Notes: generated from the letters alone by a model not told the origin. DNA of 64,000 nucleotides from a bacterium (GCA_030693425.1 JAUYAM010000002.1:320632-384631); one strand, 5' to 3'. Shown: positions 29,671 to 61,284, numbered from the stretch's first letter. Numbers and translations are program-made.

Positions 29671-29677
29671 CACGCCC

Positions 29678-33467: not shown

Positions 33468-34517
33468 TTAAATCAGTTTTTTGTAAATTTCCTCATATTT
33501 ATCAACCATTTGCTTTAGGGTGAAATTTTGTTCAACATGGGCGCGGCAATCTTTTCGCTTGATAGTATCAATTTTTTTGATAGCTTTGACCATTTCTTCT
33601 TTCGTTCCGACAATAAAACCGGTTTTCTTATCCTTAATTATTTCTGGCACTGAGCCGCGGCGGTAAGCAATCACCGGCGTGCCGCAGGCCATGGCTTCAA
33701 TCATAACAAGTCCAAAAGGCTCCCGGCGGTTAATTGGGTAAAGTAACCCTTTTGCCTTGCTGAGTAATTTGACTTTTTCGTCAAAACCAACTTGACCGAC
33801 AAATTTAATATTTTCATCATTTAAATGCGGTTGGACTTCGTGTAAAAAATAATTCCATTCTTCGCCACCAACAATATTGCCAGCCACTATTAGCTTAATC
33901 CCTGCTTCTTTGGCCATTTGCAGCGCTTGAAGAATGCCTTTTTCTTTATTCAAGCGGCCCAGATAGATAAAATAGTCTTCCGGCGATTCATTAAAGGTGT
34001 AATCAGCTGGGTTGATTCCGTTATAAACCACATCAATTATTGGAATATTGTTTTCTTCAGCGCTTTGACGCTGGTCTTGGGAAATAGCGCAAAATTTCAT
34101 CTGGCTATTGTAGTATTTAAAAACTTCGATGGTGACTGGATCTAATGGTCGGTGCAACGTAGTTAAAATCGGAGTTTTATTGGTTTTATTATTAATCAGC
34201 GATAAAGGGAACATAAAAAAATCAAAATGATTATGAATCAAATCAAAATGATGCATTTGGCTAGAGATTTTTTTAAGAGCCAGACTAATATAAGCATGGG
34301 GACTACGCAATCCTTTTTGCAGCCAAATCCCTTTTTCTGTTAAAGGAATTAATTTTGCCGATGTTTTTGAATCGCCGGAAGCAAAAAGAGTGATATCGTA
34401 ATCTCTCGCTACTAATTCTTCAGTAAGCAAAGATAATACTAACTCAATGCCGCCGTAAGTTTTCGGTGGTACTGGAATCCAAAGCGGAGCTAGTTGAGCT
34501 ATCTTTGTTTTTTTCAT
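33468..34517 (-). CDS. GT4 glycosyltransferase, paralog 1 of 3
   Basis: EPFGLVMIEAMACGTPVIAYRRGSVPEIIKDKKTGF. Confidence 0.85.
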   Translation of the reverse strand: MKKTKIAQLAPLWIPVPPKTYGGIELVLSLLTEELVARDYDITLFASGDSKTSAKLIPLTEKGIWLQKGLRSPHAYISLALKKISSQMHHFDLIHNHFDFFMFPLSLINNKTNKTPILTTLHRPLDPVTIEVFKYYNSQMKFCAISQDQRQSAEENNIPIIDVVYNGINPADYTFNESPEDYFIYLGRLNKEKGILQALQMAKEAGIKLIVAGNIVGGEEWNYFLHEVQPHLNDENIKFVGQVGFDEKVKLLSKAKGLLYPINRREPFGLVMIEAMACGTPVIAYRRGSVPEIIKDKKTGFIVGTKEEMVKAIKKIDTIKRKDCRAHVEQNFTLKQMVDKYEEIYKKLI

Positions 34518-34560: not shown

Positions 34561-34587
34561 ACCTGAGCCTCAGAGCCGAAGGCCTGA
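34561..34587. repeat. 27-mer identical to 9041-9067 (REP-like hairpin ctcag-agccgaaggc-ctgag)
   Basis: acctgagcctcagagccgaaggcctgag. The flanking ...atcgaaggattggcga also matches 9094-9110. Confidence 0.9.
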
Positions 34588-34823
34588 GCCACATCGAAGG
34601 ATTGGCGATTCTTTTGGCTTGCCAAATGGGACGATTTTCCTTGTCCCGCCGAAGCCCTTCGATAAACTCAGGGCGAAGGAGGAAAATCTTTAAGTGGGCT
34701 GTAACTAGTTGCTTGGCCCGGCCAAGCAACCGCCCAGAAATTCAGGCAAGGCGAGGCCTTATGTACCGTGTTGTTAAAAAGAAAAGCTCGGCGGCAACGA
34801 ACTGATGACGCTATGCCGAGCTT

Positions 34824-40107: not shown

Positions 40108-40251
40108 GTTTTTATTAAATTACCTCTTATTATAAAAATGACTGGCTACGCTAACTTAAGTAATATAACAGATATTAAGGCTTTTGTCAACTAAGCCGTG
40201 GGCGCCCGTGGAAATGCTGTCAATCTTGATTCTTTCTCTTTCTCCATTTTT

Positions 40252-40260
40252 ATTCTACCA
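40252..40260 (-). promoter_or_regulatory. Extended -10 TGgTAGAAT after the palindromic terminator
   Basis: Minus strand reads cctgcctaccggtaggcagggttttttGGTAGAAT. Confidence 0.4.
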
Positions 40261-40266
40261 AAAAAC

Positions 40267-40286
40267 CCTGCCTACCGGTAGGCAGG
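40267..40286. terminator. 20-bp perfect palindrome cctgcctaccggtaggcagg with flanking A- and T-tracts (bidirectional terminator type), copy 1
   Basis: It lies 53 nt downstream of the CYTH gene stop. Identical copies occur at 40886-40905 and 46903-46922, each followed by ...tcttt(t)ggcgatt. Confidence 0.65.
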
Positions 40287-40338
40287 CGCCTCTTTGGCGA
40301 TTATCCGGCTGTTTTTATCCAAGGGAAAGCTATATTCA

Positions 40339-40863: not shown

Positions 40864-40870
40864 ATTCTTT

Positions 40871-40879
40871 ACTCTATCA
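40871..40879 (-). promoter_or_regulatory. Extended -10 TGaTAGAGT; candidate leaderless CYTH transcript
   Basis: Minus strand reads gggttttttGATAGAGTaaagaatATG, with 7 nt between the box and ATG 40863. Confidence 0.45.
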
Positions 40880-40885
40880 AAAAAC

Positions 40886-40905
40886 CCTGCCTACCGGTAG
40901 GCAGG
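40886..40905. repeat. Palindrome cctgcctaccggtaggcagg, copy 2
   Basis: Identical 20-mer. No gene ends next to it on either strand. Confidence 0.85.
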
Positions 40906-41045
40906 CGCTTCTTTGGCGATTTTTGGCAAGTCTTTTATTCTCATTCCGTTATTTCACTCTATGTTAAAATAAATTTCCCGTCAATTTTACCCCAAAATTA
41001 ACTCAAAACCCCGCACAGCGACAGAGTTGCGTACGGGGCAGGCTC

Positions 41046-41099
41046 CTCCTTGACGATAAAATCAGAAAACGTGGGAGGTCGGACCTCCTTTGTTTTCAA
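41046..41099 (+). repeat. 54-nt repeat, second identical copy
   Basis: Identical to 29678-29731. It is preceded by a cccc...gggg hairpin (about 41024-41056), as at locus 1. Confidence 0.9.
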
Positions 41100-41480: not shown

Positions 41481-43025
41481 ATGAAAACGAAACATCTCGC
41501 CAGTTTTATTATCCTAGGTTTTTTAATAATCGGCTCAACCGTTTTAACCGGCCGGACATTTGCCGAAGAAACAACCAAAACGATAAACGTCCAGTATCCG
41601 GTCAATGAACTGGGTGGTTGTAAAAATGAAACTGACTGTCGTTTTTACTGTGACAAACCGGGAAATGCGGAGGCCTGCTTGGACTTTGCCCAAGAGAACA
41701 ATTTAATGTCTGAAGGAGAAATCAATGCGGCTAAAAATTTTCTGAAAATTGATGAAAATGGTCCGGGCGGATGCAAGGGAAAAGAAGAATGCGAAGAATA
41801 TTGCAGTAATACGAACCATATTGATGAATGTATTTCTTTTGCTGAAGAAAACAACTTAATACCGCCGGAAGAATTAGAAGAAGCGAGAAAAGTCCAAGCC
41901 GCGATTAGAAGAGGTTTCAATCCGCCTCCTTGCGGCAATAAAAAACGATGCGATATTTACTGCGACCAACCGGAACATATGGAAGAATGCATTACTTTCG
42001 GCATAGAAGCCGGTTTTATCCAGGGCGAAGAGCTTAATAACGTTCAAAAAATGCTGGCCGCCATTAAAAAAGGCGTAAAACCGCCTCCCTGCCGAGGCAA
42101 AGAGGCCTGCGATAAATATTGCGGCGAGCCCGACAATATGGAGGTCTGCATGACTTTTGCCATGGAAGCTGGTTTTATGACCGAGCAGGAAAAAGCCGAC
42201 TCCCAAAAAATGCTCCAGGCGCTCAAAAAAGGAATCAAGCCGCCTAATTGCCGAGGCAAAGAAGAATGCGATGTTTATTGCGGCCAGGAAGAGCATTTTG
42301 AAGAATGTATAAATTTTGCTGAAGCGGCTGGCTTTATGACTTCAGAAGACGCGGCAATGGCCCGCAAAACAAAAGGCAAGGGCCCGGGCGGCTGCAAAAA
42401 TAAGGAGGAATGCGAGGCGTTCTGCAATAATCCTGATAATCAAGAAGCATGTTTCAATTTTGCCAAAGAAAACGGAATGATACCGGAAGAAGACCTAAGA
42501 CAAATGGAAGAAAGCAAGCAGAAGCTCCAGGAGTCGCTGAACCAGGCGCCGCCGGCCGTGCTCGATTGCCTGAACTCGGTTCTGGGCAGCGACATGGTGG
42601 AAAAGATAAAGAGCGGCCAGGCGCTACCGCCGAGAGAAACCAACGACCAGATGCGCGCCTGTTTTGAAAAGATGAGGTCGCCGGCCGGAGAGGAAGGCCA
42701 GGGACAGATGCCGCCAGGACAAACCGGCCCGGACGGCCCTAATGGCCCGGCCGGGCCTCAGGGCTGCCAAAGCCCTACCGAATGCCAGGCTTTTTGCGAG
42801 AATAATCCTCAAGAGTGCCAAAACTTCGGGCCGCAATCAGAAGGGCCGACCCGACCCGAAGAACCTAACTCTCCAATGCCTCCCAATCAGCAGCTACCGA
42901 TAGAAAACCCTCCGCCTCCGGAAAATCCGCCTCCGTCAAACGAAAATCCTCCGGCCGGCTTATTCGGCCCGAACTCCCTACTTGGATCAGTCGCGAATAT
43001 TTTCCTCAAGATATTCAATCAATAG
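41481..43025 (+). CDS. Secreted protein built from 6-7 four-cysteine repeats of about 53 aa, plus a Pro-rich tail
   Basis: Signal anchor KHLASFIILGFLIIGSTVLTG. The unit C-x5-C-x3-C-x9-C followed by F(A/G)xExGF is repeated, for example GGCKGKEECEEYCSNTNHIDECISFAEENNL, PCRGKEACDKYCGEPDNMEVCMTFAMEAGF and NCRGKEECDVYCGQEEHFEECINFAEAAGF. The tail reads PIENPPPPENPPPSNENPP. Confidence 0.8.
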   Translation: MKTKHLASFIILGFLIIGSTVLTGRTFAEETTKTINVQYPVNELGGCKNETDCRFYCDKPGNAEACLDFAQENNLMSEGEINAAKNFLKIDENGPGGCKGKEECEEYCSNTNHIDECISFAEENNLIPPEELEEARKVQAAIRRGFNPPPCGNKKRCDIYCDQPEHMEECITFGIEAGFIQGEELNNVQKMLAAIKKGVKPPPCRGKEACDKYCGEPDNMEVCMTFAMEAGFMTEQEKADSQKMLQALKKGIKPPNCRGKEECDVYCGQEEHFEECINFAEAAGFMTSEDAAMARKTKGKGPGGCKNKEECEAFCNNPDNQEACFNFAKENGMIPEEDLRQMEESKQKLQESLNQAPPAVLDCLNSVLGSDMVEKIKSGQALPPRETNDQMRACFEKMRSPAGEEGQGQMPPGQTGPDGPNGPAGPQGCQSPTECQAFCENNPQECQNFGPQSEGPTRPEEPNSPMPPNQQLPIENPPPPENPPPSNENPPAGLFGPNSLLGSVANIFLKIFNQ

Positions 43026-43031
43026 CAAAAA

Positions 43032-43163
43032 CCCCGTATAACGCTTTCCACTCCCGAATCCTACGGGTTCGCGTCGTGGTGGCGCGTATACGGGGCAGGC
43101 CCCGCACAACGCTTTCCATTCCCGAAGCTTACAGCTTCGCGTCATGGTGGCGCGTATACGGGG
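43032..43163. repeat. Two tandem 64-nt imperfect-palindrome units (period 68), locus 2, between convergent genes
   Basis: Units at 43032-43095 and 43100-43163. The inner stems are gaatcc/gggttc and gaagct/agcttc (compensatory changes). Confidence 0.9.
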
Positions 43164-43188
43164 CAGGCCGCCCGGCCAAGAAACTTCC

Positions 43189-43816: not shown

Positions 43817-45094
43817 TCATTTTGTTTTGGGCTTCCAGGACAGGTAACGATCCTCGTTGCGAGGTTTCATTCGGAGGGTAACGCTTTTACTGAAGAGTTT
43901 TCCTGTTTTAGATCGAATTACCAGTTCCACATCCGAGTCGCCATGGTTAGACAAGACATACTGGAAATAGGGATCCCTGGAACGATAGAGCGACTGATTG
44001 CCTGAGCGCCCATAGCTGACAATGGGCCAGTTGCTGGCAATCTTGCCATTGATTTTCATCAGGGCATCCCCGGACTTTATGCCTTGTTCTGCTGCCACCG
44101 AAAACGGTTCTACGTAACGGATGACGCGCCAGTCCGAAGGATTAAACCCAAGCCCCAGCCCGCCGTAACGAACGCGGCGCGCATAGCATTTGGAAGATTT
44201 GGCGGCTCGGTCCGAAAACTGGCCCATCAGCTCGTCAAATATAACCGGTGCGATTCCGCGGATATCCGGATTAAGCCCTTCGTGATCCGCTTCGCCAACC
44301 CAGATCAATGGCGGGATTTCCAGTTTTTCGCCTTTCACTAACTTGGCGTGGTTTAGAAAGTTGAGCCTGATATTGCTGTAATAACTGACTGTGGTGTAGC
44401 CGGGCGTCGTCTGCGAGCTTATGACCGGCACCGCTGAAGTGAACCCGCCTACATTCCAGCCGATCATGCCGGTGGTCCAGACATACTTTGTTTCCGTGCT
44501 GGTAACCGTGGTCGGCGGCGTATACTGTTCCTTTTTACCGATAAAGAAATCCATGCTGATGATGGTTTGCGGATCCTTGGTGGCGCGCATCAGCCTATGC
44601 GTCTGCAAGACTTTTTCCAGCTGCAAGAATAGTTCTTTTTCCAGAAGCGGGTTCGTCTTGCTGGTGTAGTCAAAATCAAAGGTCTTATAATCGGCAAGGG
44701 ATTCTTCGGCGTCCCTATAGACCCGGATATTGACTTCTTCGGTGGGAAAGGCAACGGGAAAGAAGTCCTGGGCATTGGAACCTGCAGCCTGGTTCCCCAA
44801 TGTGCTCACAATATTGGCCTCGAAAGTATATGAAGAGTTTCCCATGCTGTCCAACGAATTCCGGATTATATAAATCCTGCGATTTATGCGGCTGAGAAGA
44901 ATAGAGTACACAACCAATCCTATCACCGCATAAACGATATAAGCATCATTTTTCAGGAATATATCAAGGGCATTTTCAGGCCCCTCTGAGAAAATAAAAA
45001 CTGCGACTAGCAGTAATGGGATCGTTATAAAAAGCGCTTTTACAACCCTATAAAACAACAAAACAACTTCTGTAAATGATTTTTTAATAGACAT
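43817..45094 (-). CDS. Membrane protein with C-terminal PDZ domain
   Basis: Two N-terminal TM helices. The PDZ-like region is GLGLGFNPSDWRVIRYVEPFSVAAEQGIKSGDALMKINGKIASNW. Confidence 0.65.
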   Translation of the reverse strand: MSIKKSFTEVVLLFYRVVKALFITIPLLLVAVFIFSEGPENALDIFLKNDAYIVYAVIGLVVYSILLSRINRRIYIIRNSLDSMGNSSYTFEANIVSTLGNQAAGSNAQDFFPVAFPTEEVNIRVYRDAEESLADYKTFDFDYTSKTNPLLEKELFLQLEKVLQTHRLMRATKDPQTIISMDFFIGKKEQYTPPTTVTSTETKYVWTTGMIGWNVGGFTSAVPVISSQTTPGYTTVSYYSNIRLNFLNHAKLVKGEKLEIPPLIWVGEADHEGLNPDIRGIAPVIFDELMGQFSDRAAKSSKCYARRVRYGGLGLGFNPSDWRVIRYVEPFSVAAEQGIKSGDALMKINGKIASNWPIVSYGRSGNQSLYRSRDPYFQYVLSNHGDSDVELVIRSKTGKLFSKSVTLRMKPRNEDRYLSWKPKTK

Positions 45095-45219
45095 GATTTT
45101 TAACTATGAATTATTATTTATGTATTATACGATAATGAAAACAAAATCGCTAACTTGACTCCCCTGGTTGGACAACGCTTAACCCCGTAGTTCCCGCTGA
45201 AAGCGGGATACTACTGGGG

Positions 45220-45498
45220 TTAGAACCTGTTTTGCAACGGAATACAAATATTCCCGTTAAAACACTTATCTTCACCGCAATCACAGCTTTTTACCTGATG
45301 ACTGTTGGTTGGCGAACAACCACAGGCGCCGATTAAACATGAATTCGGAAAATCGCTAGTTGAATTGCAACACAATGATGTCTTAATGCTTCCTCCCGAA
45401 AGCACGCAAGTTTGTTCTTTTTGGGTTTGATAAAACCAAAAGCCTATTCCGATGATGACGGCTGTTATAATTAAGGCAAAGGTGATTTTTTTAGACAT
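45220..45498 (-). CDS. Small secreted Cys-rich protein (92 aa)
   Basis: Signal anchor ITFALIITAVIIGIGFWF, then 12 Cys, including CCNSTSDFPNSCLIGACGCSP and CDCGEDKC. Confidence 0.6.
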   Translation of the reverse strand: MSKKITFALIITAVIIGIGFWFYQTQKEQTCVLSGGSIKTSLCCNSTSDFPNSCLIGACGCSPTNSHQVKSCDCGEDKCFNGNICIPLQNRF

Positions 45499-45523
45499 TT
45501 ATTATTGCTTAATTAATGGCTTT

Positions 45524-45532
45524 ATTCTATCA
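45524..45532 (-). promoter_or_regulatory. Extended -10 TGaTAGAAT after a terminator T-tract
   Basis: Minus strand reads ccgccagttggcggagaggtggttttttGATAGAATaaagcc, 26 nt upstream of ATG 45498. Confidence 0.45.
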
Positions 45533-45780
45533 AAAAACCACCTCTCCGCCAACTGGCGGATAAAAGGCGATTTTGTCAGCTCGCTTAGCGAGACAGCTTT
45601 CGAACATTTAATTAGGAGAAAGCGTTTCCTTCTCCCGAGCTTGTTGTTAGTCAAGTAAGGCAATTATTAGCTTTGGCTTAGTTTACCCCACTATGCTACT
45701 CACTATTGTTTGGGAATAAAAAAAAGAACCCCCTCTCTCTTTGCAGCTTTAACTACATTAAGAGGAGGGGCCTTTGTTCC

Positions 45781-45996
45781 TTATGCGTCATCTAAAGCGC
45801 ATTTATCGGAACAGTAAACTGCGACATGCGTTGGATGAAGCGGTTTATTGCAGGCTGGATTCATGCATCTTCTTCCGTTGGGATGGTCTTTGGGGGTTAA
45901 CCATCCTCTATCATTACATGCCTGGCATCCATTTCCTCCACATCCATCACATTGTACAGAGTCAACCGGATAGGTCTTGTCTTTTGGAATGTCCAT
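45781..45996 (-). CDS. Small zinc-finger protein (DnaJ-type CxxCxGxG-like)
   Basis: SD aaaggag. Motifs: CDGCGGNGCQAC, CMNPAC and CSDKC. Size is 71 aa. Confidence 0.6.
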   Translation of the reverse strand: MDIPKDKTYPVDSVQCDGCGGNGCQACNDRGWLTPKDHPNGRRCMNPACNKPLHPTHVAVYCSDKCALDDA

Positions 45997-46044
45997 GAGA
46001 TTTCTCCTTTAGTAAAGGGCTAGAAAACATTTAACAACATTTAT

Positions 46045-46072
46045 ATATTACACAAACTTTAAAAATTGTCAA
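46045..46072 (-). promoter_or_regulatory. Sigma70-type promoter
   Basis: Minus strand has TTGACA (46072-46067), a 16-nt spacer, then TAATAT (46050-46045), about 45 nt upstream of ATG 45996. Confidence 0.55.
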
Positions 46073-46094
46073 ACAAAAACCTAAAACCTTGAAC

Positions 46095-46440
46095 TTTTTG
46101 GCTCCCCTGGTTGGACAACGCTAAAACCTTGTCCGTCTTTATAAATAGCAAGGATCTTGTCGTTGCAACAAGATCCTTACCCAACTATCCCCTTTGCTGG
46201 GGAGAGGCAAGCATAGGTTTTATGTTGGTCCTTGATAAATCTCGTTCGAATCGAGACGTATCCCTGGACGTACCCTAGGGCACAAATTACTCCATTCTCC
46301 CTCAATGTCTGACTCACGATGTAAAGGTCTGCCGGCGGTGTCTCCTCTCTCCTGCCACCGGGATCATTGAGGTATACCTAGGATTACGAAAAGAGCAAAG
46401 CCTTTCGGTGACTGTTTAATACCGCATTATAAGGTAAACG
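46095..46440 (-). ncRNA. Candidate structured ncRNA of unknown class
   Basis: About 350 nt contain no ORF of 60 aa or more in a genome with tiny spacers, and the region has locally GC-rich stems. Examples are ccggtgg...ccgccgg at about 46339-46368 and aaggatcttgt-tgcaacg-acaagatcctt at about 46150-46178. The 3' end carries the shared module (46100-46134). One segment, GGGAUACGUCUCGAUUCGAACGAG, resembles a tmRNA 5' end, but no tRNA-like 3' end was found. Confidence 0.3.
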
Positions 46441-46551
46441 TCAACATACCGTATTTCTCCTATTCAACAACCAAAAAACCGCCTCTTTGGCAATTTCTTT
46501 ATTCAGTCACGCAAATAGAAAGGAGCGGTCTTCACGATCGCTCCTTCGATT

Positions 46552-46782
46552 TCACGCAGTCATGGCTTGTTTGACCGTCAGCTGTCCGCCACCCCATTTA
46601 AAGTGGATTCCATCCACTTTCTCTGGGGCGATGCCGAAACTGCCGAGGATTTCTGATTTTTCTGCCTTTTCCTCGGCATTATTTCTGGCATAATAGCAGA
46701 GAGTGATTGCTCGCCAAAAGCCAAGTCTTAATCCGCGGAAATCAACACCTCCCCATCTCTCGAGCCAAAAACATTTTAACAT
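46552..46782 (-). CDS. Hypothetical protein (76 aa)
   Basis: A strong SD (gaggaggtaggtc) precedes ATG 46782. No family was recognised. Confidence 0.45.
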   Translation of the reverse strand: MLKCFWLERWGGVDFRGLRLGFWRAITLCYYARNNAEEKAEKSEILGSFGIAPEKVDGIHFKWGGGQLTVKQAMTA

Positions 46783-46902
46783 GACCTACCTCCTCAAGAA
46801 CTATAGAATGTTCTTAGACATTTAATTTTTATAACAATCCTACCATTTGTCAAGACAACCTGCCGTAATGCTTCAGTAGATAGTAATCCCCTGCCAAAAA
46901 AC

Positions 46903-46922
46903 CCTGCCTACCGGTAGGCAGG
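46903..46922. repeat. Palindrome cctgcctaccggtaggcagg, copy 3
   Basis: Identical 20-mer with the same flanks (caaaaaac / cgtctttttggcgatt). Confidence 0.85.
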
Positions 46923-46944
46923 CGTCTTTTTGGCGATTTTCATT

Positions 46945-47103
46945 GGCTCCGCATCGTAGACAACGTTAGAACTATTATCCAGCGACAAAATGAGTATATT
47001 TACATACCAGATCTGCGGTCACAAGGGCAGATCTAGTTTATTGATTGTTACCCTACCCTGCTATATCTCTCCGATGTCTTTGCTTACAGGACGACGTTAG
47101 AAC
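46945..47103 (-). repeat. Shared 3' module split by a 121-bp segment bounded by a 10-bp direct repeat
   Basis: acgttagaac occurs at 46963-46972 and 47094-47103. Joining the flanks gives ggctccgcatcgtagacaacgttagaacctgttta, which is colinear with the uninterrupted 8530-8563 (ggctccgcccatagaacgatgttagaacctgttt). Confidence 0.7.
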
Positions 47104-47193
47104 CTGTTTATGTGTATAGAGGGGTATCCCCTAGTCTGTTTTCTAGAATACTATTATTTAGCTCTCTTATAGGAAAATTGGGATTTTGACAAA

Positions 47194-47538
47194 TTATGGT
47201 TCATAGACCGTTTCAACAGTCATTAGGTTATCAAGGGCCCATCCCATTTCATCGTAAGAACTCCACGCATATTCCTGAGCATCTTCAATATACGAATTTA
47301 CTTCTTCTATATTATTATTGGCTTCTTGAAGAGCCATTTGGTAATCGTATAATTGCCATTCTGAATTATCGTTAGCTTCTTGAAGAGTTATTTGGCAATC
47401 GTCTAATTCCCCTTCTAAATAATAATTATCATTCTCGAGTCGTGTTATTGTTTTATGATTATTCCAAATCCAGATTGTTGCGATGACGATTATTAAAATT
47501 ATCAGTCCCTTTTTGTTATCTTGAGTTTCTATATCCAT
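47194..47538 (-). CDS. Membrane-anchored protein with an acidic repeated segment
   Basis: TM helix GLIILIIVIATIWIW. Internal repeat: ITLQEANDNSEWQLYDYQ / MALQEANNNIEEVNSYIE. The track start is TTG; ATG at 47538 is preferred. Confidence 0.5.
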   Translation of the reverse strand: MDIETQDNKKGLIILIIVIATIWIWNNHKTITRLENDNYYLEGELDDCQITLQEANDNSEWQLYDYQMALQEANNNIEEVNSYIEDAQEYAWSSYDEMGWALDNLMTVETVYEP

Positions 47539-50131: not shown

Positions 50132-50240
50132 AAATTTATCTTAGCCTAATTTACCCTACCCCGCTACTCACTATTGTTTAGAAACAAAAACTCCCGCATT
50201 GGGAGTTCTTTGTTGGAGTAACACTCTTAAGAGAGGTATA

Positions 50241-53118: not shown

Positions 53119-56100
53119 CTACTTACTGAGCGTCAAAGTTGAGAGCGGGAAGCTCGGAACTTTGTAGTCGTCTGACCAGTCAGAAGTTGTCACCGCGTGG
53201 CTGGCAGCTGATCTGTCAGACCAGGCAAATGACTTGGTAACGGTTGTACCTGTAGTGCCGCTGTCCGCAGCGTTGGCAGTACCGAAGGCTAGAAGATAGG
53301 TGGTAGTTGCCACCGATGAAGCCAAATCAGGCACTCTTACTAGAACCGCGTCACCAGTGTAGCCGCCGTAAGCCAGATCACCTCTTAATTCATAGGTGTT
53401 GGTTGTTCCGTAGGCTATCACTTCTTCGTTGGTAGCGACAAAAACAGCGTAAGTTCCGCCATTGGCATCAGTATCGGTCCTGAAGTGCCAGGCTCCGGCA
53501 ACTTGAGTGTTGGTCGCTGAATTGTAAACCTTCATTGAAGATTCATCAATCAGTTTGGTGTCAGGATTGGTGGCAGCACCAGCAACAATCATGTATATGC
53601 CATCGTAAACTGGCGTGGTTGTGTCATCCGTACCGATAGTCCTAACAGTAGTAGCGTCAGTGTGAATGGAACCAGAGAAGTGGAACATCATTGCTTTCCA
53701 GCCGATATTGCCGATTGCGTCAGCAGAAACAGTCCACTTGTAGAGCGTCTTTGTGCCAGAACTCAACAGAGTTGAAGGCAGAGAAGAAGCAGCTAAAGTA
53801 GGAACTGATTGTCTAAAGATCTGCTCGCTGCCGCAAAGGTCTGTTCCGCCGGCAACGCTGATAGAGCCCTTGGACTCGGCTCCTTCAGCCGTGATGTAGT
53901 AGTTCGTGGTTCCGTCTGAATCAACGCAGAGCTTTGGAGCGTCTCCGCTTGAAGCGCCGCTAGTAGATCCAATGCCTGCCAAGTTTCCAACAAGAGTCAA
54001 AACCTTGGTCGCGTTCTTAGGCACTCTCACATAAGCTCCTGGAAGGAAATTGAATGTGACTGTGCCGCCGGAAAGGTATCCGGTTGAATCGACCTGGGTT
54101 GTCCCGTCGTAAATCTTGACAGCGGAAAAGTCTCCGTCTGCACCGCCTGACCTAATAACTATGATTGACTTTATATCAACTGCTTCGTAAACAGCCGTAA
54201 ACAAGAGTTTAGTGAAGTTTACCGCAGTCTTGCCCTGTCCTTCGGCTCCGACTGCCTGAGTGGCAATGATCGGAGTGTCAGGATTGGTTGTTAAAGTCAA
54301 TGATCCGGCTGTCGTCAGAGTCACCTCGTATTCTCCAGCACCAGTAACAGCGTAGTTAACGCCAGTCGTTGGGCTAAGAGTCGCGGTCGGGTTGGTATTT
54401 GAAGTCAATCCAGTCACGGTCACACTGCCGGCCACGTCGATACCTAAGGCATTAATATGCCCGCTGGTAGCGGTGGAAGGCACATCCGCTTTCGCGTAAA
54501 TGACCACCTGTTGACCCTTGGCAATGTCAATGCCCAGGGAGTTCAGGAAGTCCGAAGCCGAGAAAGTAACCGTGGCTGAACTCAAGGACTTGTAAGCGGT
54601 CAGTCTGGTGCCTGCCGAGTCATAATAAAGGGCGAGGTTGGACAGATCCGCGTCCGCACCCGTGCCCGAAGACGTTCTCGTCAGCTTGATCGAGCTAACC
54701 CGGATATCTTCGGCCGAGCCGGCCGTCAAAACGAAACCAGCATAGGTTACGCCAGTAGCGTTAAGAATGGCCGTCTGATCAGCCGGGCTGGAAGCGATGG
54801 AAACAGTCAAACTGCCCGTACCCACGACCATCAGATTGCCGAGAGCCGAACCGGTTTCGGTAATATCAGCTGTGGAATAAACGCCGGTAGAAGTGATGTC
54901 CGTAGTCACAGTCGCTGCCGCTACGTCAAAGTGGACACCGTTAGTGCCCAGAGCCGTTGTCGTCGGAATATCGGCCACCACGGTTAAGGTGGCGGTATTG
55001 CCGGCCGACACGGTTAAGCTGCCCGAGAACGACTCGGTTGTGCTGGGAGCAGCGACAGTTGAACCGAATTGAGTGCCGTCTTCCTTTAACAGCTTGACAT
55101 TGGTAACGTCGCCCGAAGCCGTGGCTGTGCTCGTGCCCGAAGCGGCGTAAGACTTGACGGTCACGGCGGAGATCAAAATATCTTCGCCCGTGCCAGCAGT
55201 AAAGTTGATTTTCGTGAACACTTTAGCGATCGCGCCTTTAATATAGGTTTGAGCTGCCGGCGTGGTTGACGCCAAAGAAACTGCTAAAGTTCCATAACCT
55301 ACGATAGTGTGACCGTTGCCAGTTGGCGTCGGGCTGCCGAGAGTCACTGAACCAGACGGTAAATCATACTGAGAAGTAAGGCCATCTGCTTTCAGATCAG
55401 CTGCGGCATTGACTTTCAAGCCAATTCGGCTGGCTCCAGCGGTTGCCCCTGACGGAATGTCAGCTTTGGCTGAAATCACTTTGTTGGTAGAAGCCGCCAT
55501 ATCAAACAAGCCACCGCTTGAATCCCAGCCAATGGTGTTTGAACCGAATTTTACGGTTGAACCAACCATAGATCCTGAAGCAATCAGGGTTGAACCATCG
55601 TATAAGTTGATATTGGAAATATCAGTCGCGGTTCCGTTAGTGCTTGCCTGGGTAAGAGTCAATTCAGTCACTCTTACGCCTTCTGTTGAACCAGTAGAGA
55701 ATTTGAAAGCTGCAATCAAACGGCTGGTTGTCCCCAAGACATAACTCTGGACTGCCGGGTTAGTAGCAGAGTCCAAAGCAATATTTAAAGTTCCGGCTGC
55801 AGTAATGGCATTAACAGTTAATGTATTGCTAATTGGTAAGCCAGTTATAATGATATCGTGGTTTAGGGTTGCATTTTCTAATGTAAATTTATGAGTTCTT
55901 CCTCCAACGGCCGTGGAATTGACATCAGCCACTAATTTTATTCTTTTGGCTCCTGAGGAAAGGTTTGTTATCAAGTTCGAAAAAATGATTTTATTGTTCT
56001 CGTTGATGGAAGCCGCTGATCCTAATAAAGCATTGCTGTCCGTATCGTATAATCTAAAGTTGCTAATGTTGTTTTTATCTCCCGTTCCGTCATGCAAAAA

Positions 56101-59100
56101 TGTTAATGAGTTGGTATTGACATCGTATAGAGAATCGACTTGAAAATTAAATAATGTTTGGTTCTCGGGACCCGCATTTATCGTACTAGGATTAGTGCCA
56201 CTGGTTGAGAATTTAAAACCATCGTTTATGTTTTGTGAACCGTGATAATCATCGGTTGTTTCTGTAACAAAAACGCCGTAACCCTTTAGTTCTCTAAAAT
56301 CATTTAAATTATCAGCTTCCGAAGCTACTTTTACGCTCCAGGTATCTCCAATCTTTACAGAATCCAGGCTTGATTGATCGGCAGTAAAATCAATTACTTG
56401 CGAGACTGAATCAACAACAGAACTAAAAATTTTACTAATATTATTAGTATCAATATTTGCAGCGCCTTTTTGTAAAGCGTAATCAGGAGAAGCTACGCCA
56501 ATGGCGTTCCACCCGCCATTGAGAATCCTTTGAAATAATCTTTGTCCTGGCGATAGATTAAAATCATATTTCAGTTTCAGGATCTGGACTTGATTGGTTT
56601 TATTATTAATAAAATAAGCAAAGAGGGGTTGGAATTCGCTTTGACCGGCTTCCTGCATTGTCTGCCAGCCAGAAACGGAATTGGGGTTTAATAAATAAAT
56701 ACCAAGGTTGTCTGAAGTCTCAGCAACAGAGAATTCATGACTCGACAAAACCCTTGGGGTTGAGACGATATTCCATCCCGGCTCTAAATTGATAACTTGA
56801 TACGGTGCTTGGGGAATATCCGCATTTACAGTCACTGTATAAGTGATTACCGTTGTTCCGTCTTGGGCCGTGACCACTAATGTGTTGCCGGTTACTACCG
56901 TATCGGCTATGCCCGCATCAATCCACGTTTGATGAATCTCGCCTTTGATTAGAGTAGCTAAGAAAGTAGCTTTGGTCGTTCCAAACGATACATTGGTAAT
57001 AGTTTCAGTGGCTGTTCCGCCTAAGCTTACTGTATAAGTTGCAGAGTTTATTGTCGCTACTGTACTTGCTGGCAATTTTAATACTGTTAATGAAAATGAT
57101 TTTGTATCAGATACGACGCCTTTGGCTAGAGCGGCTGTTAGAGTTACGACTGCATTTCCGCTTGCAAAAGCCGGCCTGCTGATTGTTTGTCCATCGTTTG
57201 AAACAACGGTTGGATTGCTTGATAACCAAGAGATTGTTGACCCACTAGCTCCAAGTGATGGCAACGGGTTCGTAAGGGCTACTGTAATACTTGATAAATC
57301 AGGATTTGCTCCTTTGATGGAATCATCTACTAATGCTGCTTTATCAGCGGCTACGGCAGCAATGTCGGGATTAGCGATTACATTAACTGTTCTGGTTATT
57401 TCTTCTGCCGGATTGCCAGCAGCATCTGAAACATTGTAAGTTATGATGTAAGTTCCTGGAGTGCTGGTGTCTACGGTGTTACCTCCAATAATAATAGAAT
57501 TTGTTAAGTCGCCTTCAATGTCATCAATGGCTGTCGCCCCCAGTTCATCGTAAGAATCACCCACAGTAAGGTTTATTGTTTCATCGCCGTCTAGGTTGAT
57601 CTCTGGCGGGGTTGTGTCAATTGTAAAAGCTGAAACATTTAATGGTACGCTTTCATTACTAGCTGTATCAGTAACGGTTATTGTGCAGTCACTATATAGA
57701 TCATCATCTAATTCATTAAAACTGATTGTGTTGTTGCCTGCTATAGCTGTGATAATTGAACTGGAACAGGAACCATCATAAGTAATAGTCCCTGCTTCAT
57801 CTGAACTGAACGTATAATCAGGAGTATTGTCATTGGTCGGAGTTGAGACAGACGTGACTTCGGCCAATGTTGGTGCTGTCTGATCGTCAAAATCAAGTTC
57901 AGCAGTTGCAAATGGTTCGTAAATAACTTTGCCCAAAGAAATATCATCATAATAATCATATATTTTATTTGATATTGATACATTATCCGTTATACCCCAA
58001 TAATTATTAATTGCATCAATATTGGCAGAACTATCATCCATCCTTAAATTATAATTCGTGTTTCCATAGATATTATTGTTCGATATGTCAACCAGACCAT
58101 AACTATTATATTTATATATATATATCCCAACATTATTATTATTTATTATATCGTTTTCTTCAATAATATTGCCGGAACCGGATCCTCCATAATAATCAAT
58201 ACCTGCAAAACTATTATGAGACATAATATTGTTTTTTATTATGTTGTTTGCTCCATATAATTTGATCCCGCAAGCATTATACGTAAATGAGTTGTTCTGC
58301 ACTATATTATTATTTGAATTAGATATTATAAAACCATTTATTCCGTTATTGGTAATAGTATTGTCTTTTACAATATTCTGACTTGAATATATTTCTACTA
58401 TGCCATTACCGCAATCCCCAGGAAAAGCTAAATAGTTATTCTTTATTATATTATTTGTTATCTTACTACGAGCACCAAGTATATACACAGCCTTATAATA
58501 GTTATCTTCAATAATATTATTATCTATAAATAAAGATGTGCTATCAGAATAGATAGCCCAGGGTGAAGAACCAGAATACCCAGAATAATTTATATTGCAA
58601 TATCTAAAAATACTTCCTTCAACATAGTTGTTGTCTGCGTCAAAAATGGCATCAGTTGCGGTGTTAAAAAACTTTATTCCAATCCAATCTCCCGCTTTTG
58701 GTGTTGATAAATTGGAAGTAAAAATAATAATATTATCGATAGTTCCTGAAGCAATTAATTCACCGCCAATATTTAAACCAGTATTTGTGTTAAATTTTAC
58801 AGTAACCCCAGGCTCAATAGTTAGTGTGGCCCCTTCTAAAACTTGAACGGTGCCCGTAACAATATAAGGACTATTGGCCAGTGTCCAAGTCGTATCTTCG
58901 GTTATATTGCCAGAGACGGTATTAGCGGCAACGGTAACAGTCACAACATAAGCTTGGGTAGAAGAATCAGCAGCAGTAACGGTATAAGTTACTGGACTCG
59001 TGAAATCTTGAGCTGCGCCGGAAATCGGACTTACTGAAGCTCCTGTAATTGTGATTATTGGGACAAGGGCAGTGACATTGGTTCCGAATGGAACGGTGAT

Positions 59101-61284
59101 TGCGATTGTATGATCAGCTTCGTTAATGACACCCGTGGTTGCTGGGGTGGCGAAACTAAAAGCAGTGATTGCTTTGGCGGGGTTAGCGGCTTGGAGGGCT
59201 TTTTGCGCATTGATTCTTTTACCTGTTACGGTTTTACCAGATAAAGACGTTAAACTGTCGCCCGTTGTTAAAATTGTATTTTTTACTTGTGATGATGTGA
59301 GACCAGGGTTATATCCTCCTATCAACGCCGCGAGACCTGCAACATGTGGCGCAGCCATGGAAGTACCATTCAGATAACCGTACTGCTCATCTGAACCATC
59401 GCTATATTTGGTAATTCTTATGTCATCAACCGAACAACCATCTCCGTTGCCAGTATCCGCGTTCCCATTTGCTACCCATCTGAATCTAAATTTAAAATTG
59501 CTAGTTGAATATTGACTTGGAATACTCAAGTTTTCAAAATGATATGCTGCACTGCCAGAAGGGTTCGTATTCGAATCTATCGAAGGCTCGTTCCACTTTA
59601 ACATCTCAGTAAAAGTGCTTCCACCATCATTACTAAATTCCAACGCCATATAGTCAGTCCAACTGGTTATACTATATTCTGTATCGCATCTGGTCCAAAA
59701 ATCTATATTCGCCCCACCCGCACTTAAATTATATGCTGGCGAGGTAATGGTAGAATTAGCTGTCCGTGCATAGGGTATGTTCTTTACATCACCATATAAT
59801 ACTTTGCCCCAAACAGTACCGCTATCTAACGGATATGTTCCCCAATCTCCAGTAGGCAAAAGATAGGCTGGCACGGCGGGTGGCGTTACTCCTTCAAAGT
59901 TTTCAAATAAGACGGTTGTTTCTTGGGGAACAGTACTATAAATATTCGTCCCCGGAGCACCAACATCAACAGAAGTTGCACCATAATCTGAAAATGTAGT
60001 CAAGGCATCGTTTTGATCCGTAGCGGCAACGCAAATAATGTTATTAGCCATATGGTCACACGGATAAGAATGCAAAGTTTGACCATTGTCATGGTTGTCT
60101 CCACCATCATCAGTATCTCCATCACCGTTTCCAGCAGCTGTAATAAATAACCCAGGGAAAGATTCGATTGCACTCATCATAGCCGAATCTCTATAATCAC
60201 CACTTCCTCCACACACGGCGTGAGTTCCGCCTTGGTCAGAACCATAACACAACCAACTCGCATTTATAATCTTGGCTCCGTTTTGTCTGGCGAAATTTAT
60301 ACTTTTTACGTTATCAGTAGTAGTAAGAGAAGATTTTAATGCCATTATCTTTGTATTTGGAGCTACTCCGATAATGCCTTTGCTGTTATTTTTGGCCGCA
60401 GCTATCGTTCCAGCGATATGAGTGCCGTGAGACGAGGTAGTGGGCAACGGCGTATTGTCGCCATCTTCATAGTCATAACCGTGGTTACAACCTCCTGCTA
60501 TAGTAATGCCATTTTCATCTTTACAGCTTGTCCCATCCCACATATTCGCAGCCAAATCAGGATGATTATAAGCAATACCGCTATCAATCACAGCCACTAT
60601 AACAGAAGCATTTATGCCTTCATTTATTGTCCAAGCCTCGGGCGCATCAATATCAGCGTCAGCTAATCCAGTATGAACAGGATATGTCCCACCTACTGTC
60701 TGGCCTGTATTATCTAATCCCCATAGAATGACCCTGCTTGTATCGTTCGTGTTAATATCTGCAGGATAATATTGAAAATTCGGTTGAGCATACTCAACGT
60801 TAGGATCGTTTTTTAACTCGGCTATTTTCTGCTCAACTGTTTTAGCATCCTTAATTCTTAAAACTGAGACATTTATCTTTCTTAAATCTTCTTTTTTCTC
60901 CAACGATTTAGAACGAATAAAATTCAAAGCTGCGGCCCTACCAAAAGAAGTATTCAAATTAATCTTATTATTTTTATACTTTACTAAAATCTCACCTTCT
61001 ACATAATCTTTTTTCTTTCCTTCTGCTTGTTGAGACTTTTCTAACCCAATCTTTTCTTTTTTGGTTATCGACAAGTCCGAAGATAAACTTTTAACCTCTT
61101 TGGGTGAAAAGCTTATTTTATTAAAAGCCGTTCCGCCACTATCAAGTGGAGTTTCGGTCCTGACCCGCTCAAAGTTAACATCATTCTTTTCAACAGCTAA
61201 AACGGGCAAATTAAAGTTGCCTAGAATAACAAAAATAGTTAAACAGACCGAAAGAAACGAACTAAGCTTTTTAAATTTTTTCAT
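53119..61284 (-). CDS. Giant (2721 aa) secreted subtilisin-family (S8) protease with beta-helix, DUF5011 and many Ig-like repeats
   Basis: Signal peptide. S8 triad motifs VAVIDSGIAYNHPDL (Asp), SHGTHIAGTIAAA (His) and GTSMAAPHVAGLAALI (Ser). Parallel beta-helix repeats (NNIIKNN..., ITNNGINGFIISNSNNNIVQNN). DUF5011 segment (GATAIDDIEGDLT...TYNVSDAAGNPAEEITRTVNV). The C-terminal half has repeated modules of about 100 aa with the (I/V/L)SN(I/L)xLYDxxG pattern. Confidence 0.85.
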   Translation of the reverse strand: MKKFKKLSSFLSVCLTIFVILGNFNLPVLAVEKNDVNFERVRTETPLDSGGTAFNKISFSPKEVKSLSSDLSITKKEKIGLEKSQQAEGKKKDYVEGEILVKYKNNKINLNTSFGRAAALNFIRSKSLEKKEDLRKINVSVLRIKDAKTVEQKIAELKNDPNVEYAQPNFQYYPADINTNDTSRVILWGLDNTGQTVGGTYPVHTGLADADIDAPEAWTINEGINASVIVAVIDSGIAYNHPDLAANMWDGTSCKDENGITIAGGCNHGYDYEDGDNTPLPTTSSHGTHIAGTIAAAKNNSKGIIGVAPNTKIMALKSSLTTTDNVKSINFARQNGAKIINASWLCYGSDQGGTHAVCGGSGDYRDSAMMSAIESFPGLFITAAGNGDGDTDDGGDNHDNGQTLHSYPCDHMANNIICVAATDQNDALTTFSDYGATSVDVGAPGTNIYSTVPQETTVLFENFEGVTPPAVPAYLLPTGDWGTYPLDSGTVWGKVLYGDVKNIPYARTANSTITSPAYNLSAGGANIDFWTRCDTEYSITSWTDYMALEFSNDGGSTFTEMLKWNEPSIDSNTNPSGSAAYHFENLSIPSQYSTSNFKFRFRWVANGNADTGNGDGCSVDDIRITKYSDGSDEQYGYLNGTSMAAPHVAGLAALIGGYNPGLTSSQVKNTILTTGDSLTSLSGKTVTGKRINAQKALQAANPAKAITAFSFATPATTGVINEADHTIAITVPFGTNVTALVPIITITGASVSPISGAAQDFTSPVTYTVTAADSSTQAYVVTVTVAANTVSGNITEDTTWTLANSPYIVTGTVQVLEGATLTIEPGVTVKFNTNTGLNIGGELIASGTIDNIIIFTSNLSTPKAGDWIGIKFFNTATDAIFDADNNYVEGSIFRYCNINYSGYSGSSPWAIYSDSTSLFIDNNIIEDNYYKAVYILGARSKITNNIIKNNYLAFPGDCGNGIVEIYSSQNIVKDNTITNNGINGFIISNSNNNIVQNNSFTYNACGIKLYGANNIIKNNIMSHNSFAGIDYYGGSGSGNIIEENDIINNNNVGIYIYKYNSYGLVDISNNNIYGNTNYNLRMDDSSANIDAINNYWGITDNVSISNKIYDYYDDISLGKVIYEPFATAELDFDDQTAPTLAEVTSVSTPTNDNTPDYTFSSDEAGTITYDGSCSSSIITAIAGNNTISFNELDDDLYSDCTITVTDTASNESVPLNVSAFTIDTTPPEINLDGDETINLTVGDSYDELGATAIDDIEGDLTNSIIIGGNTVDTSTPGTYIITYNVSDAAGNPAEEITRTVNVIANPDIAAVAADKAALVDDSIKGANPDLSSITVALTNPLPSLGASGSTISWLSSNPTVVSNDGQTISRPAFASGNAVVTLTAALAKGVVSDTKSFSLTVLKLPASTVATINSATYTVSLGGTATETITNVSFGTTKATFLATLIKGEIHQTWIDAGIADTVVTGNTLVVTAQDGTTVITYTVTVNADIPQAPYQVINLEPGWNIVSTPRVLSSHEFSVAETSDNLGIYLLNPNSVSGWQTMQEAGQSEFQPLFAYFINNKTNQVQILKLKYDFNLSPGQRLFQRILNGGWNAIGVASPDYALQKGAANIDTNNISKIFSSVVDSVSQVIDFTADQSSLDSVKIGDTWSVKVASEADNLNDFRELKGYGVFVTETTDDYHGSQNINDGFKFSTSGTNPSTINAGPENQTLFNFQVDSLYDVNTNSLTFLHDGTGDKNNISNFRLYDTDSNALLGSAASINENNKIIFSNLITNLSSGAKRIKLVADVNSTAVGGRTHKFTLENATLNHDIIITGLPISNTLTVNAITAAGTLNIALDSATNPAVQSYVLGTTSRLIAAFKFSTGSTEGVRVTELTLTQASTNGTATDISNINLYDGSTLIASGSMVGSTVKFGSNTIGWDSSGGLFDMAASTNKVISAKADIPSGATAGASRIGLKVNAAADLKADGLTSQYDLPSGSVTLGSPTPTGNGHTIVGYGTLAVSLASTTPAAQTYIKGAIAKVFTKINFTAGTGEDILISAVTVKSYAASGTSTATASGDVTNVKLLKEDGTQFGSTVAAPSTTESFSGSLTVSAGNTATLTVVADIPTTTALGTNGVHFDVAAATVTTDITSTGVYSTADITETGSALGNLMVVGTGSLTVSIASSPADQTAILNATGVTYAGFVLTAGSAEDIRVSSIKLTRTSSGTGADADLSNLALYYDSAGTRLTAYKSLSSATVTFSASDFLNSLGIDIAKGQQVVIYAKADVPSTATSGHINALGIDVAGSVTVTGLTSNTNPTATLSPTTGVNYAVTGAGEYEVTLTTAGSLTLTTNPDTPIIATQAVGAEGQGKTAVNFTKLLFTAVYEAVDIKSIIVIRSGGADGDFSAVKIYDGTTQVDSTGYLSGGTVTFNFLPGAYVRVPKNATKVLTLVGNLAGIGSTSGASSGDAPKLCVDSDGTTNYYITAEGAESKGSISVAGGTDLCGSEQIFRQSVPTLAASSLPSTLLSSGTKTLYKWTVSADAIGNIGWKAMMFHFSGSIHTDATTVRTIGTDDTTTPVYDGIYMIVAGAATNPDTKLIDESSMKVYNSATNTQVAGAWHFRTDTDANGGTYAVFVATNEEVIAYGTTNTYELRGDLAYGGYTGDAVLVRVPDLASSVATTTYLLAFGTANAADSGTTGTTVTKSFAWSDRSAASHAVTTSDWSDDYKVPSFPLSTLTLSK

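Follow-up and report, generated by a model that had tools for sequence, protein, structure and literature searches.

The window analysed here, a stretch of 64,000 nucleotides from a bacterial contig (GCA_030693425.1 JAUYAM010000002.1:320632-384631), has a G+C content of about 42% and long open reading frames (ORFs) that lie almost all on the minus strand, and the homologues of its proteins carry names pointing to Patescibacteria/Paceibacteria. Its intergenic spacers contain a short module which, read on the minus (gene-sense) strand, has the form AAAC-AGGTTCTAAC-(A/G)T(C/T)GT(C/T)C-N7/8-GGAGCC(A) in the window copies and is present in at least eight copies, from intact to degenerate, every one of them on the minus strand. 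From its sequence, the region 46945-47112, which an earlier note had described as one copy split by an inserted element, reads as a short form followed by a long form, that is as two neighbouring members of the family. The family itself is short, oriented, strictly extragenic and deeply conserved, it is homogenised in its centre within genomes and it exists in short and long forms. Tentatively, and with a little less than even confidence, we assign the module to a large family of repetitive extragenic elements that are short, keep strictly to one orientation and occur in Patescibacteria-type bacteria.

All module copies listed in the earlier note could be located in the window sequence and their recurrence is well above chance: the degenerate pattern TGGCTCCNC-N12-GTTAGAAC, scanned with up to three mismatches, matches at 8529, 46099, 46944 and 47075, which is four matches compared to 0.25 expected, and none of 100 shuffles reached four. 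A family hidden Markov model (HMM) built from metagenome copies recovers 46941-46972 (E 1.9e-6), 47083-47110 (2.9e-6) and 46099-46133 (1.2e-4). The module is a real, recurrent and transcription-oriented unit adjoining terminators, as had been proposed. Two of the listed copies have to be described differently, as 45157-45184 is the 3' half of a copy with its 5' half sitting at 45219-45233 and a 42-nt hairpin (45177-45218) between them, and 31176-31205 is a diverged family copy but embedded in a long-form unit. Diverged copies at 45556-45617 and 34593-34650 are additional to the list. The label ‘RNase-P-like’ given to the locus around the first copy could not be upheld, as Rfam offers no support for it. 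Besides degenerate tandem repeats, the stretch contains a terminator and an ORF of 71 aa that has a Shine-Dalgarno sequence. Neither RNase P nor any other Rfam family gave a relevant match in 8300-9300 and 45000-47300 at gathering or permissive E-values. What the motif has in common with RNase P RNA is only its non-coding nature and a nearby hairpin.

To describe the family outside the window, metagenome contigs were scanned with AGGTTYTARCNNYGTYNNNNNNNNGGAGCCA, and the motif was found on at least 120 contigs compared to about two expected by chance, the latter being a rough estimate; viral contigs gave no match to two patterns. The contig-level statistics given here and below (profile, HMM counts, context and centre) rest on contigs among the matches listed. 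Family-wide, the short form AAAC-AGGTTCTAAC-RTCGTCC-N7-GGAGCC(A) is 35 nt long. In the position profile of 126 distinct matches the conservation starts abruptly at AAA[C/T], a head found in about 90% of the copies, and stops at GGAGCC(A), with nothing conserved at a fixed distance on either side of the 35-mer and no positioned promoter. Positions left free by the search pattern are conserved too (T 94%, C 91%, C 92%, C 85%). An HMM from these matches finds about 280 copies in 0.63 Mb of motif-bearing loci, and the density peaks in L114 with 10 copies in 13 kb, about one per gene. Related genomes differ in this respect, some having about 1 copy per kb and others about 1 per 10 kb or none. No motif was found in 1 Mb of loci fetched via the B3_4 protein or in L064-L066, the PDZ proteins of which are 66–71% identical to that of the window. 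The B3_4 protein as a route to relatives led to genome contigs of at most 58% identity, all without the motif, and the protein search returned only the same genome and matches of at most 65%.

As the proteins common to motif-bearing contigs show a median identity of only about 50%, the motif is far better conserved than the proteins surrounding it. The exception is its centre: the central 7 nt between GTCC and GGAGC show 76% identity within contigs but 40% between them, and are identical in 34% of the within-contig pairs compared to 1.2% of the pairs between contigs, segmental duplicates being excluded. Orthologous sites carry each genome's own centre variant, for example in L105, L154 and L155. 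No covariation between positions was detected inside the 35-mer, and the sole consistent helix is GGUUC(U)/(G)GAGCC with 5–6 bp, two G.U pairs and a 17-nt loop; ten nucleotides of this 17-nt middle are conserved. Three tandem 35-nt motifs with 55-nt spacing form a mini-array in L103 (1447-1591), where the surrounding gene calls are ambiguous on both strands. Five motif-rich loci gave no Rfam match at permissive E-values and no published description of the motif was found in the literature by sequence or by topic. The family, located between genes in many ultra-small Patescibacteria-type bacteria, is apparently uncatalogued.

The copies in the window and the features associated with them are collected in Table 1.

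Table 1: Copies of the module and adjoining features in the window (nt positions of the whole stretch).
Feature	Position	Strand	Evidence or remark
c1, short form, intact, AAACAGGTTCTAACATCGTTCTATGGGCGGAGCCA	8529-8563	-	exact match to strict family pattern
c1 downstream flank: small hairpin AAAATCGCT..GGCGG, broken by palindromic hairpin CCCCGTAGC..GCUGCGGGG (8465-8505), then T-tract	8462-8528	-	sequence
c4, long-form unit (contains 31176-31205)	31175-31274	-	covariance model R1 93.1 bits; fold z = -3.9
c7, diverged copy, GGGACAAGGAAAATCGTCCCATTTGGCAAGCCAAAAGAATCGCC; upstream of glycosyltransferase gene 33468-34517	34593-34650	-	nhmmer E 0.029, outside seed
c3, 3' half, GTTGTCCAACCAGGGGAGTCA	45156-45176	-	20 nt identical to corresponding part of c2
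Palindromic hairpin of 42 nt within c3, directly after TAAC	45177-45218	-	fold -22.6 kcal/mol, z = -5.2
c3, 5' half, AAAACAGGTTCTAAC	45219-45233	-	sequence; TAA now stop codon of 92-aa ORF 45220-45498
c6, diverged copy, TGTTCGAAAGCTGTCTCGCTAAGCGAGCTGACAAAATCGCC; in box-to-terminator unit upstream of 92-aa gene	45556-45617	-	window-only HMM, nhmmer E 2.4e-9, copy itself in seed
c2, short form, diverged, GGTTTTAGC..GGGGAGCCA	46099-46133	-	nhmmer E 1.2e-4 against family HMM
c5 terminator region: AAAATCGCC..GACG, palindrome CCTGCCTACCGGTAGGCAGG, T-tract	46885-46938	-	repeat family D5, also at 40249 and 40868
c5, long-form unit: 5' hairpin, conserved stretch CTGGTATGTAAATATACTCATTTTG, 3' hairpin domain with motif variant GGATAATAGTTCTAACGTTGTCTACGATGCGGAGCC	46942-47047	-	covariance model R1 111.5 bits, E 3e-19
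Promoter-like box GAGATATAGCAGGGTAGGGTAAC, upstream of c5	47048-47070	-	repeated elsewhere
c5b, short form, immediately upstream of c5; 5' 21 nt intact (AAACAGGTTCTAACGTCGTCC), 3' part degenerate	47076-47110	-	nhmmer E 2.9e-6

The intact copy c1 begins 11 nt past the terminator of the 71-aa ORF (hairpin at about 8575-8625) and is located upstream of a B3_4-domain gene (7717-8421); after the T-tract of its flank follows the promoter -10 element GGTAGGAT, 7 nt before the near-leaderless ATG of this gene at 8421, and the relative L065 shows the same promoter and start layout. Copy c2 is followed by the promoter TTGACA-N16-TAATAT of a 71-aa gene (45781-45996) and c4 by a terminator GCCCGAGAG..CTCGGGC at about 31140-31170. 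A remnant of the motif, AATCAATAGGTTTAGA at 9560-9575 (minus strand), directly abuts the TTGACA -35 element of a cold-shock gene promoter, and at the same position upstream of csp the full motif is present in L075, L077, L092 and L114.

The genuine interrupted copy of the window is c3 (45156-45233), split by the 42-nt hairpin. The idea of the earlier note that small elements insert into the module therefore holds for hairpin insertions inside copies such as c3, but not for 46945-47112. Interruptions at the same point of the motif as in c3 were found in L080, L165, L178 and L156; altogether interrupted copies are rare (about 7 compared to 178 intact ones) and their insertion points vary. The hairpin of c3 resembles the one at 8465-8505, and palindromic hairpins of about 40 nt of the type (AA)CCCC(A/G)GTAG...CTAC(C/G)GGGG(TT) are found at both sites as well as at 15700-15730, 29494-29524 and 40998-41050. 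The same hairpin family occurs in L080, L142 and L166, both inside the 35-nt motif and inside terminator loops. The hairpins look like a separate small insertion element. The Cys-rich 92-aa protein whose ORF ends inside c3 carries four extra C-terminal residues (QNRF, 45220-45232, minus strand), as its orthologues have 88 aa and end with ..IPL*; a TAA-to-CAA change removed the original stop, so that the ORF now ends at the internal TAA of the repeat.

The spacer between this small-protein gene, which ends inside c3, and the PDZ/DUF4136 gene could also be compared with relatives, and the search for empty and filled sites suggested in the earlier note proved informative. In the window the spacer has 125 nt and contains c3 plus its hairpin. 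In L188 and L192, with small proteins 86% and 72% identical to that of the window, it has only 40 nt each and is without the motif. In L190 (small protein 80% identical) it has 256 nt; here a degenerate short form follows the TAA directly, accompanied by a long form, likewise degenerate, and by a partial copy in inverted orientation, and in L067, where the PDZ protein is 93% identical, an unrelated hairpin stands in the motif's place while the promoter beyond it is conserved. The orthologous spacers thus lack the motif, contain it or have a different hairpin instead, which means that gain, loss or replacement of the element takes place within short evolutionary times and that both neighbouring genes can do without it. 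Decay is visible as well, since degenerate copies are present both in the window and in L190. At the junction between filled and empty sites no target duplication is visible, with the left junction following TAAA(A), and the survey of orthologous sites among motif-selected loci gave filled–filled pairs only.

To place the copies relative to genes, ORFs were called by a simple procedure that is noisy for small genes. Between co-directional genes, 116 copies point the same way as the genes and 5 the other way, at least some of the latter being ORF-calling artefacts, and only 7 of 219 copies are located inside called ORFs. In the median, a copy is 48 nt away from the upstream stop and 96 nt from the next start. 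Of about 160 copies 43 (27%) either overlap the upstream stop or begin no more than 12 nt away from it, where the stop can be uAAAc, aaaUAGg or the internal UAA; this internal TAA is the stop of an ORF of at least 60 codons in only 9 of 203 copies. Using strict criteria, a hairpin with T-tract was found within 70 nt downstream in 80 of 186 copies and within 60 nt upstream in 23, and a terminator T-tract follows 20–29 nt past the motif in 49 of 186 copies (26%). A T-rich tract, often a clear terminator, also lies at most 25 nt upstream in about 100 of 206 copies; the T-tract-to-motif distances are broad. Of 186 copies, 103 have an extended -10 element on the downstream side, with the maximum at 25–35 nt, and 26 have one upstream; the distances from the motif to promoter or terminator vary in most copies. 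The typical spacer shows the order stop, optional terminator, motif, small hairpin with T-tract, -10 element and an often leaderless start. The copies fill the space between one gene's stop and the next terminator/promoter composite, always in gene sense. The motif also occurs where neighbouring genes converge or diverge, and a role confined to the 3'-UTR or to the promoter would not account for all copies. Other small modules of the motif-bearing spacers also recur in the window and in other genomes.

A recurrent unit of the window is a composite of the form AAATCGCC-N5-GGCGG-TTTTTT-G(A/G)TAGAATAAA with an ATG 5–12 nt further on, its elements being on the minus strand and its plus-strand starts at 10064, 30614, 34522, 40247, 40866 and 45519. 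It consists of a small terminator-like hairpin, a T-tract and an extended -10 element for leaderless or near-leaderless mRNAs and is conserved in many metagenome contigs. In three terminator/promoter composites (40249-40302, 40868-40921 and 46885-46938) the perfect 20-nt palindrome CCTGCCTACCGGTAGGCAGG is inserted in front of the T-tract, behind a small AATCGCC..GGCG hairpin; the palindrome region 46885-46938 is also exactly where L063, an independent assembly of this genome, breaks off, and a near-identical palindrome is located between T-tract and -10 element in the relative L192 (3480-3500).

Among the known kinds of element, by analogy, a repetitive extragenic element of the REP/BIME type would be the best-fitting one. 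REP sequences and their RAYT partners show an anatomy of head, arms and non-complementary middle and a co-evolution with the dedicated transposase, the head being GT(A/G)G and located 5' of the palindrome, and elements of the IS200/IS605 type have neither terminal inverted repeats nor large target duplications (PMC2817692). Like the REP/BIME and RAYT systems of Enterobacteria, Pseudomonas and Stenotrophomonas (PMC2817692, PMC3116915), the motif is about 35 nt long, extragenic and present in high copy number. It also has a 4-nt head, two arms, a non-complementary middle and genome-specific variants, it adjoins terminators, is mixed with other modules in mosaic spacers and shows no inverted ends or target duplications. 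In contrast to REP, however, its head is AAAC, its arms have only 5–6 bp including G.T pairs and its middle is long and conserved. Moreover, the copies are single and in one orientation instead of forming inverted pairs, the only inverted partial copy being that in L190, the sequence is kept across hosts with about 50% protein identity and no RAYT was found. Since it has neither the GTAG head nor inverted doublets and at best a weak palindrome, and since no transposase was found in 0.72 Mb, we have not filed the family as REP. It also resembles BOX of Streptococcus pneumoniae, Correia and MITE-like repeats in being modular and intergenic, in having short and long forms and in its position near promoters and terminators. 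These repeats are modular intergenic elements with short and long combinations, which are co-transcribed and carry or abut promoters and terminators. However, elements of the BOX/Correia type are limited to a species or genus, are at least 100–150 nt long and have inverted ends (MITEs) or boxA/B/C modules, and none of them is known to have a 35-nt core common to deeply diverged genomes.

For such a repetitive element, the unit would spread or be homogenised within a genome as a single-stranded element of the hairpin type, with the arms GGTTCT/GGAGCC and their G.T pairs around a non-complementary middle. A conserved trans-acting enzyme might recognise it, which would explain the near-invariant arms across hosts of about 50% identity while the centre drifts genome by genome. 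The one-way orientation could result from strand-specific insertion or from selection against the other orientation. A single orientation rule is known as a feature of IS200/IS605-type mobility, and a mobility of this type would explain the lack of inverted ends and target duplications as well as the single orientation. With terminators following them, the copies would probably be transcribed along with the gene as 3' trailers without doing harm, and some of them may have been co-opted as spacers of terminator–promoter cassettes.

Several observations weigh against this assignment. A tblastn search of 0.72 Mb with an approximate IS608 TnpA (Y1) sequence as query gave no match, a weak negative as it covered short pieces of about 120 genomes. 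Among near-identical genomes no empty/filled pair was found, and neither a junction signature nor a target duplication. The arms have only 5–6 pairs, two of them G.U/G.T, around a 17-nt middle with 10 conserved positions and without covariation, and the copies are single and in one orientation, unlike REP doublets. That 24 positions hardly vary between deeply diverged hosts would not be usual for selfish repeats; a host signal recognised by conserved machinery would account for it no less well. The close spacing to stops (27%), T-tracts (26%) and the -10 peak at 25–35 nt also looks functional.

As the main alternative, the motif might be a host ‘punctuation’ signal at gene boundaries, with the 35-mer as a putative binding site, in RNA or DNA, for a conserved factor, which we regard as possible though rather unlikely. 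With the same reservation, such a factor would help to end one transcription unit and to insulate or start the next one, and the centre would co-evolve with it. It might strengthen the weak terminator hairpins of 4–5 bp, determine the position of mRNA 3' ends or shield these ends, or serve the promoters made of T-tract and extended -10 as an upstream element. Besides a primary sequence far more conserved than the host proteins, the strict orientation and the exclusion from coding sequence argue for it, as do the geometry described above with 43 of about 160 copies close to or overlapping the upstream stop, the T-tract following at 20–29 nt in 49 of 186 copies and the strong bias of extended -10 elements to the downstream side (103 compared to 26), a density reaching about one copy per gene and the homogeneity of the centre within genomes. 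On the other hand, the flanking genes in L188 and L192 manage without the motif in 40-nt spacers and a close relative has another hairpin instead, related genomes can have as many as about 1 copy per kb, as few as about 1 per 10 kb or none at all, and the roughly 100 of 206 copies with a T-tract at most 25 nt upstream sit after a terminator T-tract. Motifs in convergent and divergent spacers leave no pure 3' or 5' role that fits all, and the distances to promoters and terminators are variable in most copies. In its most far-reaching version, which we consider more doubtful still, the 35-mer would be a genome-wide gene-boundary signal of a large branch of the Patescibacteria, read just past the stop by a conserved factor that would determine termination or the mRNA 3' end and would insulate the leaderless promoter that follows, with a co-evolving centre and the long form as decoy or partner RNA. 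This would make it a bacterial counterpart of organellar punctuation. The yeast mitochondrial dodecamer is a 3'-end element after each ORF, with a mapped processing site, and is required. The motif is similar to it as a conserved, oriented primary-sequence element just past many genes in a compact genome, but orthologous spacers function without the motif.

The long form deserves a separate look. The units c4 and c5 are colinear over about 100 nt in the order box ..TAGC.GGGTAGGGTAA, 5' hairpin, CTGGTAT.TA.ATATACTCA.TTTG, 3' hairpin domain containing the module and terminator. The long form of about 106 nt thus embeds a variant of 27 nt of the short form in its 3' hairpin, behind a promoter-like box and a 5' hairpin. 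A covariance model, a kind of check suggested in the earlier note, was built from six long-form units and was informative, as it revealed ten clear long-form members, two in the window and one each in L101, L097, L084, L093, L135, L109, L180 and L125. For the three-helix structure 77% of the cells are paired compared to about 38% with slid partners, the covariation is modest with the observed score being reached by 10 of 500 shuffles for these 10 sequences, and the folding z-scores are -2.6 and -3.9. The genes downstream of the long forms show no similarity to one another. The box AATAGTGAGTAGC(N1-3)GGGTAGGGTAA is found on the minus strand at 31256-31299, 45664-45707, 47027-47070 and 50132-50175 and also in L084, L101, L112 and L170. 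It precedes long-form units but stands directly before a protein start at 50132, and it may be a special promoter or another repeat module.

From these features one could derive a family of small RNA (sRNA) genes, in which the long form would be transcribed from box to terminator as an sRNA of 110–160 nt with the motif in its 3' hairpin and the short forms would be relics, or targets sharing a protein partner with the long form. The conserved box with its -10-like TAAGAT/TAAAAT, a 5' hairpin that varies in sequence yet stays paired, the terminator, the pairing and folding values given above and the unrelated downstream genes, which speak against a gene-specific leader, are consistent with this. 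However, the covariation is weak and comes from 10 sequences, for each long form there are more than 10 short forms, which lack a positioned promoter, and the box at 50132-50175 lies directly before a protein-coding start. We consider this reading improbable. As for the sRNAs with a common terminator module suggested in the earlier note, the long form with its box, hairpins and terminator could be such a family, but not the short form.

With the long form at hand the region 46945-47112 can be interpreted. The 10-bp repeat ACGTTAGAAC described for it is indeed exact at 46963-46972 and 47094-47103, although this 10-mer is not rare by itself (4 matches with at most one mismatch compared to 2.7 expected), and the intervening segment contains the GGTAGGGTAA box as well as the 8-bp hairpin AGATCTGC/GCAGATCT and has, as had been noted, its homologue in 31206-31301. 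A single module split by a 121-bp mobile element that duplicated 10 bp of its target would agree with the exact 10-mers at both ends, with the colinear module obtained after deleting one repeat plus the segment and with the real insertions known elsewhere at the same TAAC point of the motif. However, the supposed insert is the 5' two-thirds of the long-form unit, and together with the right ‘half’ it forms one colinear unit of about 106 nt, which recurs as a conserved unit in 10 loci, most of them without the left copy. The left ‘half’ (47076-47110) is a second, full-length but 3'-degenerate short form that spans at least 21 nt and has 17–21 nt in common with the other copy, not merely 10, and contig L093 shows the same tandem layout with a complete short form (35-mer) followed by the long form. 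In addition, the 10-mer falls into the most conserved part of the family. As segment and right copy are a colinear unit, the left copy is longer than 10 nt and the tandem recurs in L093, the 10-bp repeat is the shared core of two motifs and not an insertion duplication, and we give the split module hardly any credence.

Equally slim are the chances of a polar signal at the DNA level, tied to replication or DNA uptake, for instance a signal on the lagging-strand template or an uptake sequence. Uptake of DNA is essential to Patescibacteria, the density of about 1 per kb resembles that of uptake sequences and all copies are on the gene-carrying strand, which is usually the leading strand in such genomes, but uptake sequences occur in both orientations and also inside genes, whereas the motif has one orientation and is extragenic, and its density differs greatly between related genomes. 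Where gene direction and majority strand disagree, two copies are informative, one each way.

A number of further identities were tried and rejected. A DNA uptake sequence (USS/DUS) does not match the single orientation relative to genes and the exclusion from ORFs, and a MITE neither the lack of terminal inverted repeats in the 35-mer nor that of a duplication at the filled versus empty junction. The motif itself is no intrinsic terminator, a separate terminator often being near, and an own promoter of the short form was rejected as there is no -10 element at a fixed distance and the T-tract distances are broad. A tRNA-like T-arm or ...GCCA end would need flanks able to form a T-stem, which they cannot, and the terminal CA is unconserved outside the strict pattern; the window contains no tRNA or tmRNA. 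A coding C-terminus NRF* is contradicted by the 9 of 203 copies that end an ORF of at least 60 codons, the case in the window being due to the TAA-to-CAA change. An internal RNA structure is not supported by covariation and the genome variants would form different mini-hairpins in different registers, and the argument for an optional stem fails with the small number of interrupted copies and their varying insertion points. The genes downstream in the window (B3_4, PDZ/DUF4136, small Cys-rich proteins, glycosyltransferase) do not fit a riboswitch or gene-specific leader, and an integron attC site would require a conserved GTTAGAA partner downstream, whereas none is present and the copies are scattered among housekeeping genes. 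For a sigma-54 or ECF promoter, a loxP/dif-like site, a CsrA double site and 16S 3'-end pairing, as well as for boxA (GUUCUAACA against GCUCUUUAACAA), the spacing, symmetry or order of the sequence does not fit.

Other repeats and features are present in the window. The stretch upstream of c1 contains degenerate tandem repeats of 9–24 nt; at 8930-9068 and 34561-34588 such repeats have periods of 9, 21 and 24 nt and are rich in CTGAG, TCGAG and TCGAAG, and the 28-nt stretch 9041-9068 is repeated exactly at 34561-34588. Similar stretches rich in GAGCTC/TTCGAC follow the motif in L080, L104, L115 and L165. Between a 76-aa gene and c2 lie about 340 nt without a convincing ORF (46140-46480, minus strand), which contain the strong hairpin GGATCTTGTTGCAACGACAAGATCC and have no Rfam match. 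Further dispersed intergenic repeats are a 138-nt segment found twice at 90% identity (29471-29676 and 42964-43169) with an internal 68-nt period and the 30-nt hairpin-terminator AAACGTGGGAGGTCGGACCTCCTTTGTTTT, which is present three times at 100% identity (1576-1605, 29699-29728 and 41067-41096). The sole Rfam family at gathering score in the window is the LOOT RNA RF03000 (61408-61524, minus strand, full-length, 89.5 bits compared to a gathering score of 46.4), located between a 2721-aa ORF (53119-61284) and a plus-strand gene (61589-62602).

The genomes of Patescibacteria are tiny and tightly packed, and the way in which transcription units are set apart in them is poorly understood. If the motif is a selfish repeat, it would be a very successful and unusually well-conserved one in genomes that are thought to be streamlined, and if it is a host signal, a general expression signal would have been missed so far. 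In either case the motif explains assembly breaks at intergenic repeats, gives a concrete sequence to look for in metatranscriptomes and can guide the annotation of promoters and gene boundaries in Patescibacteria.

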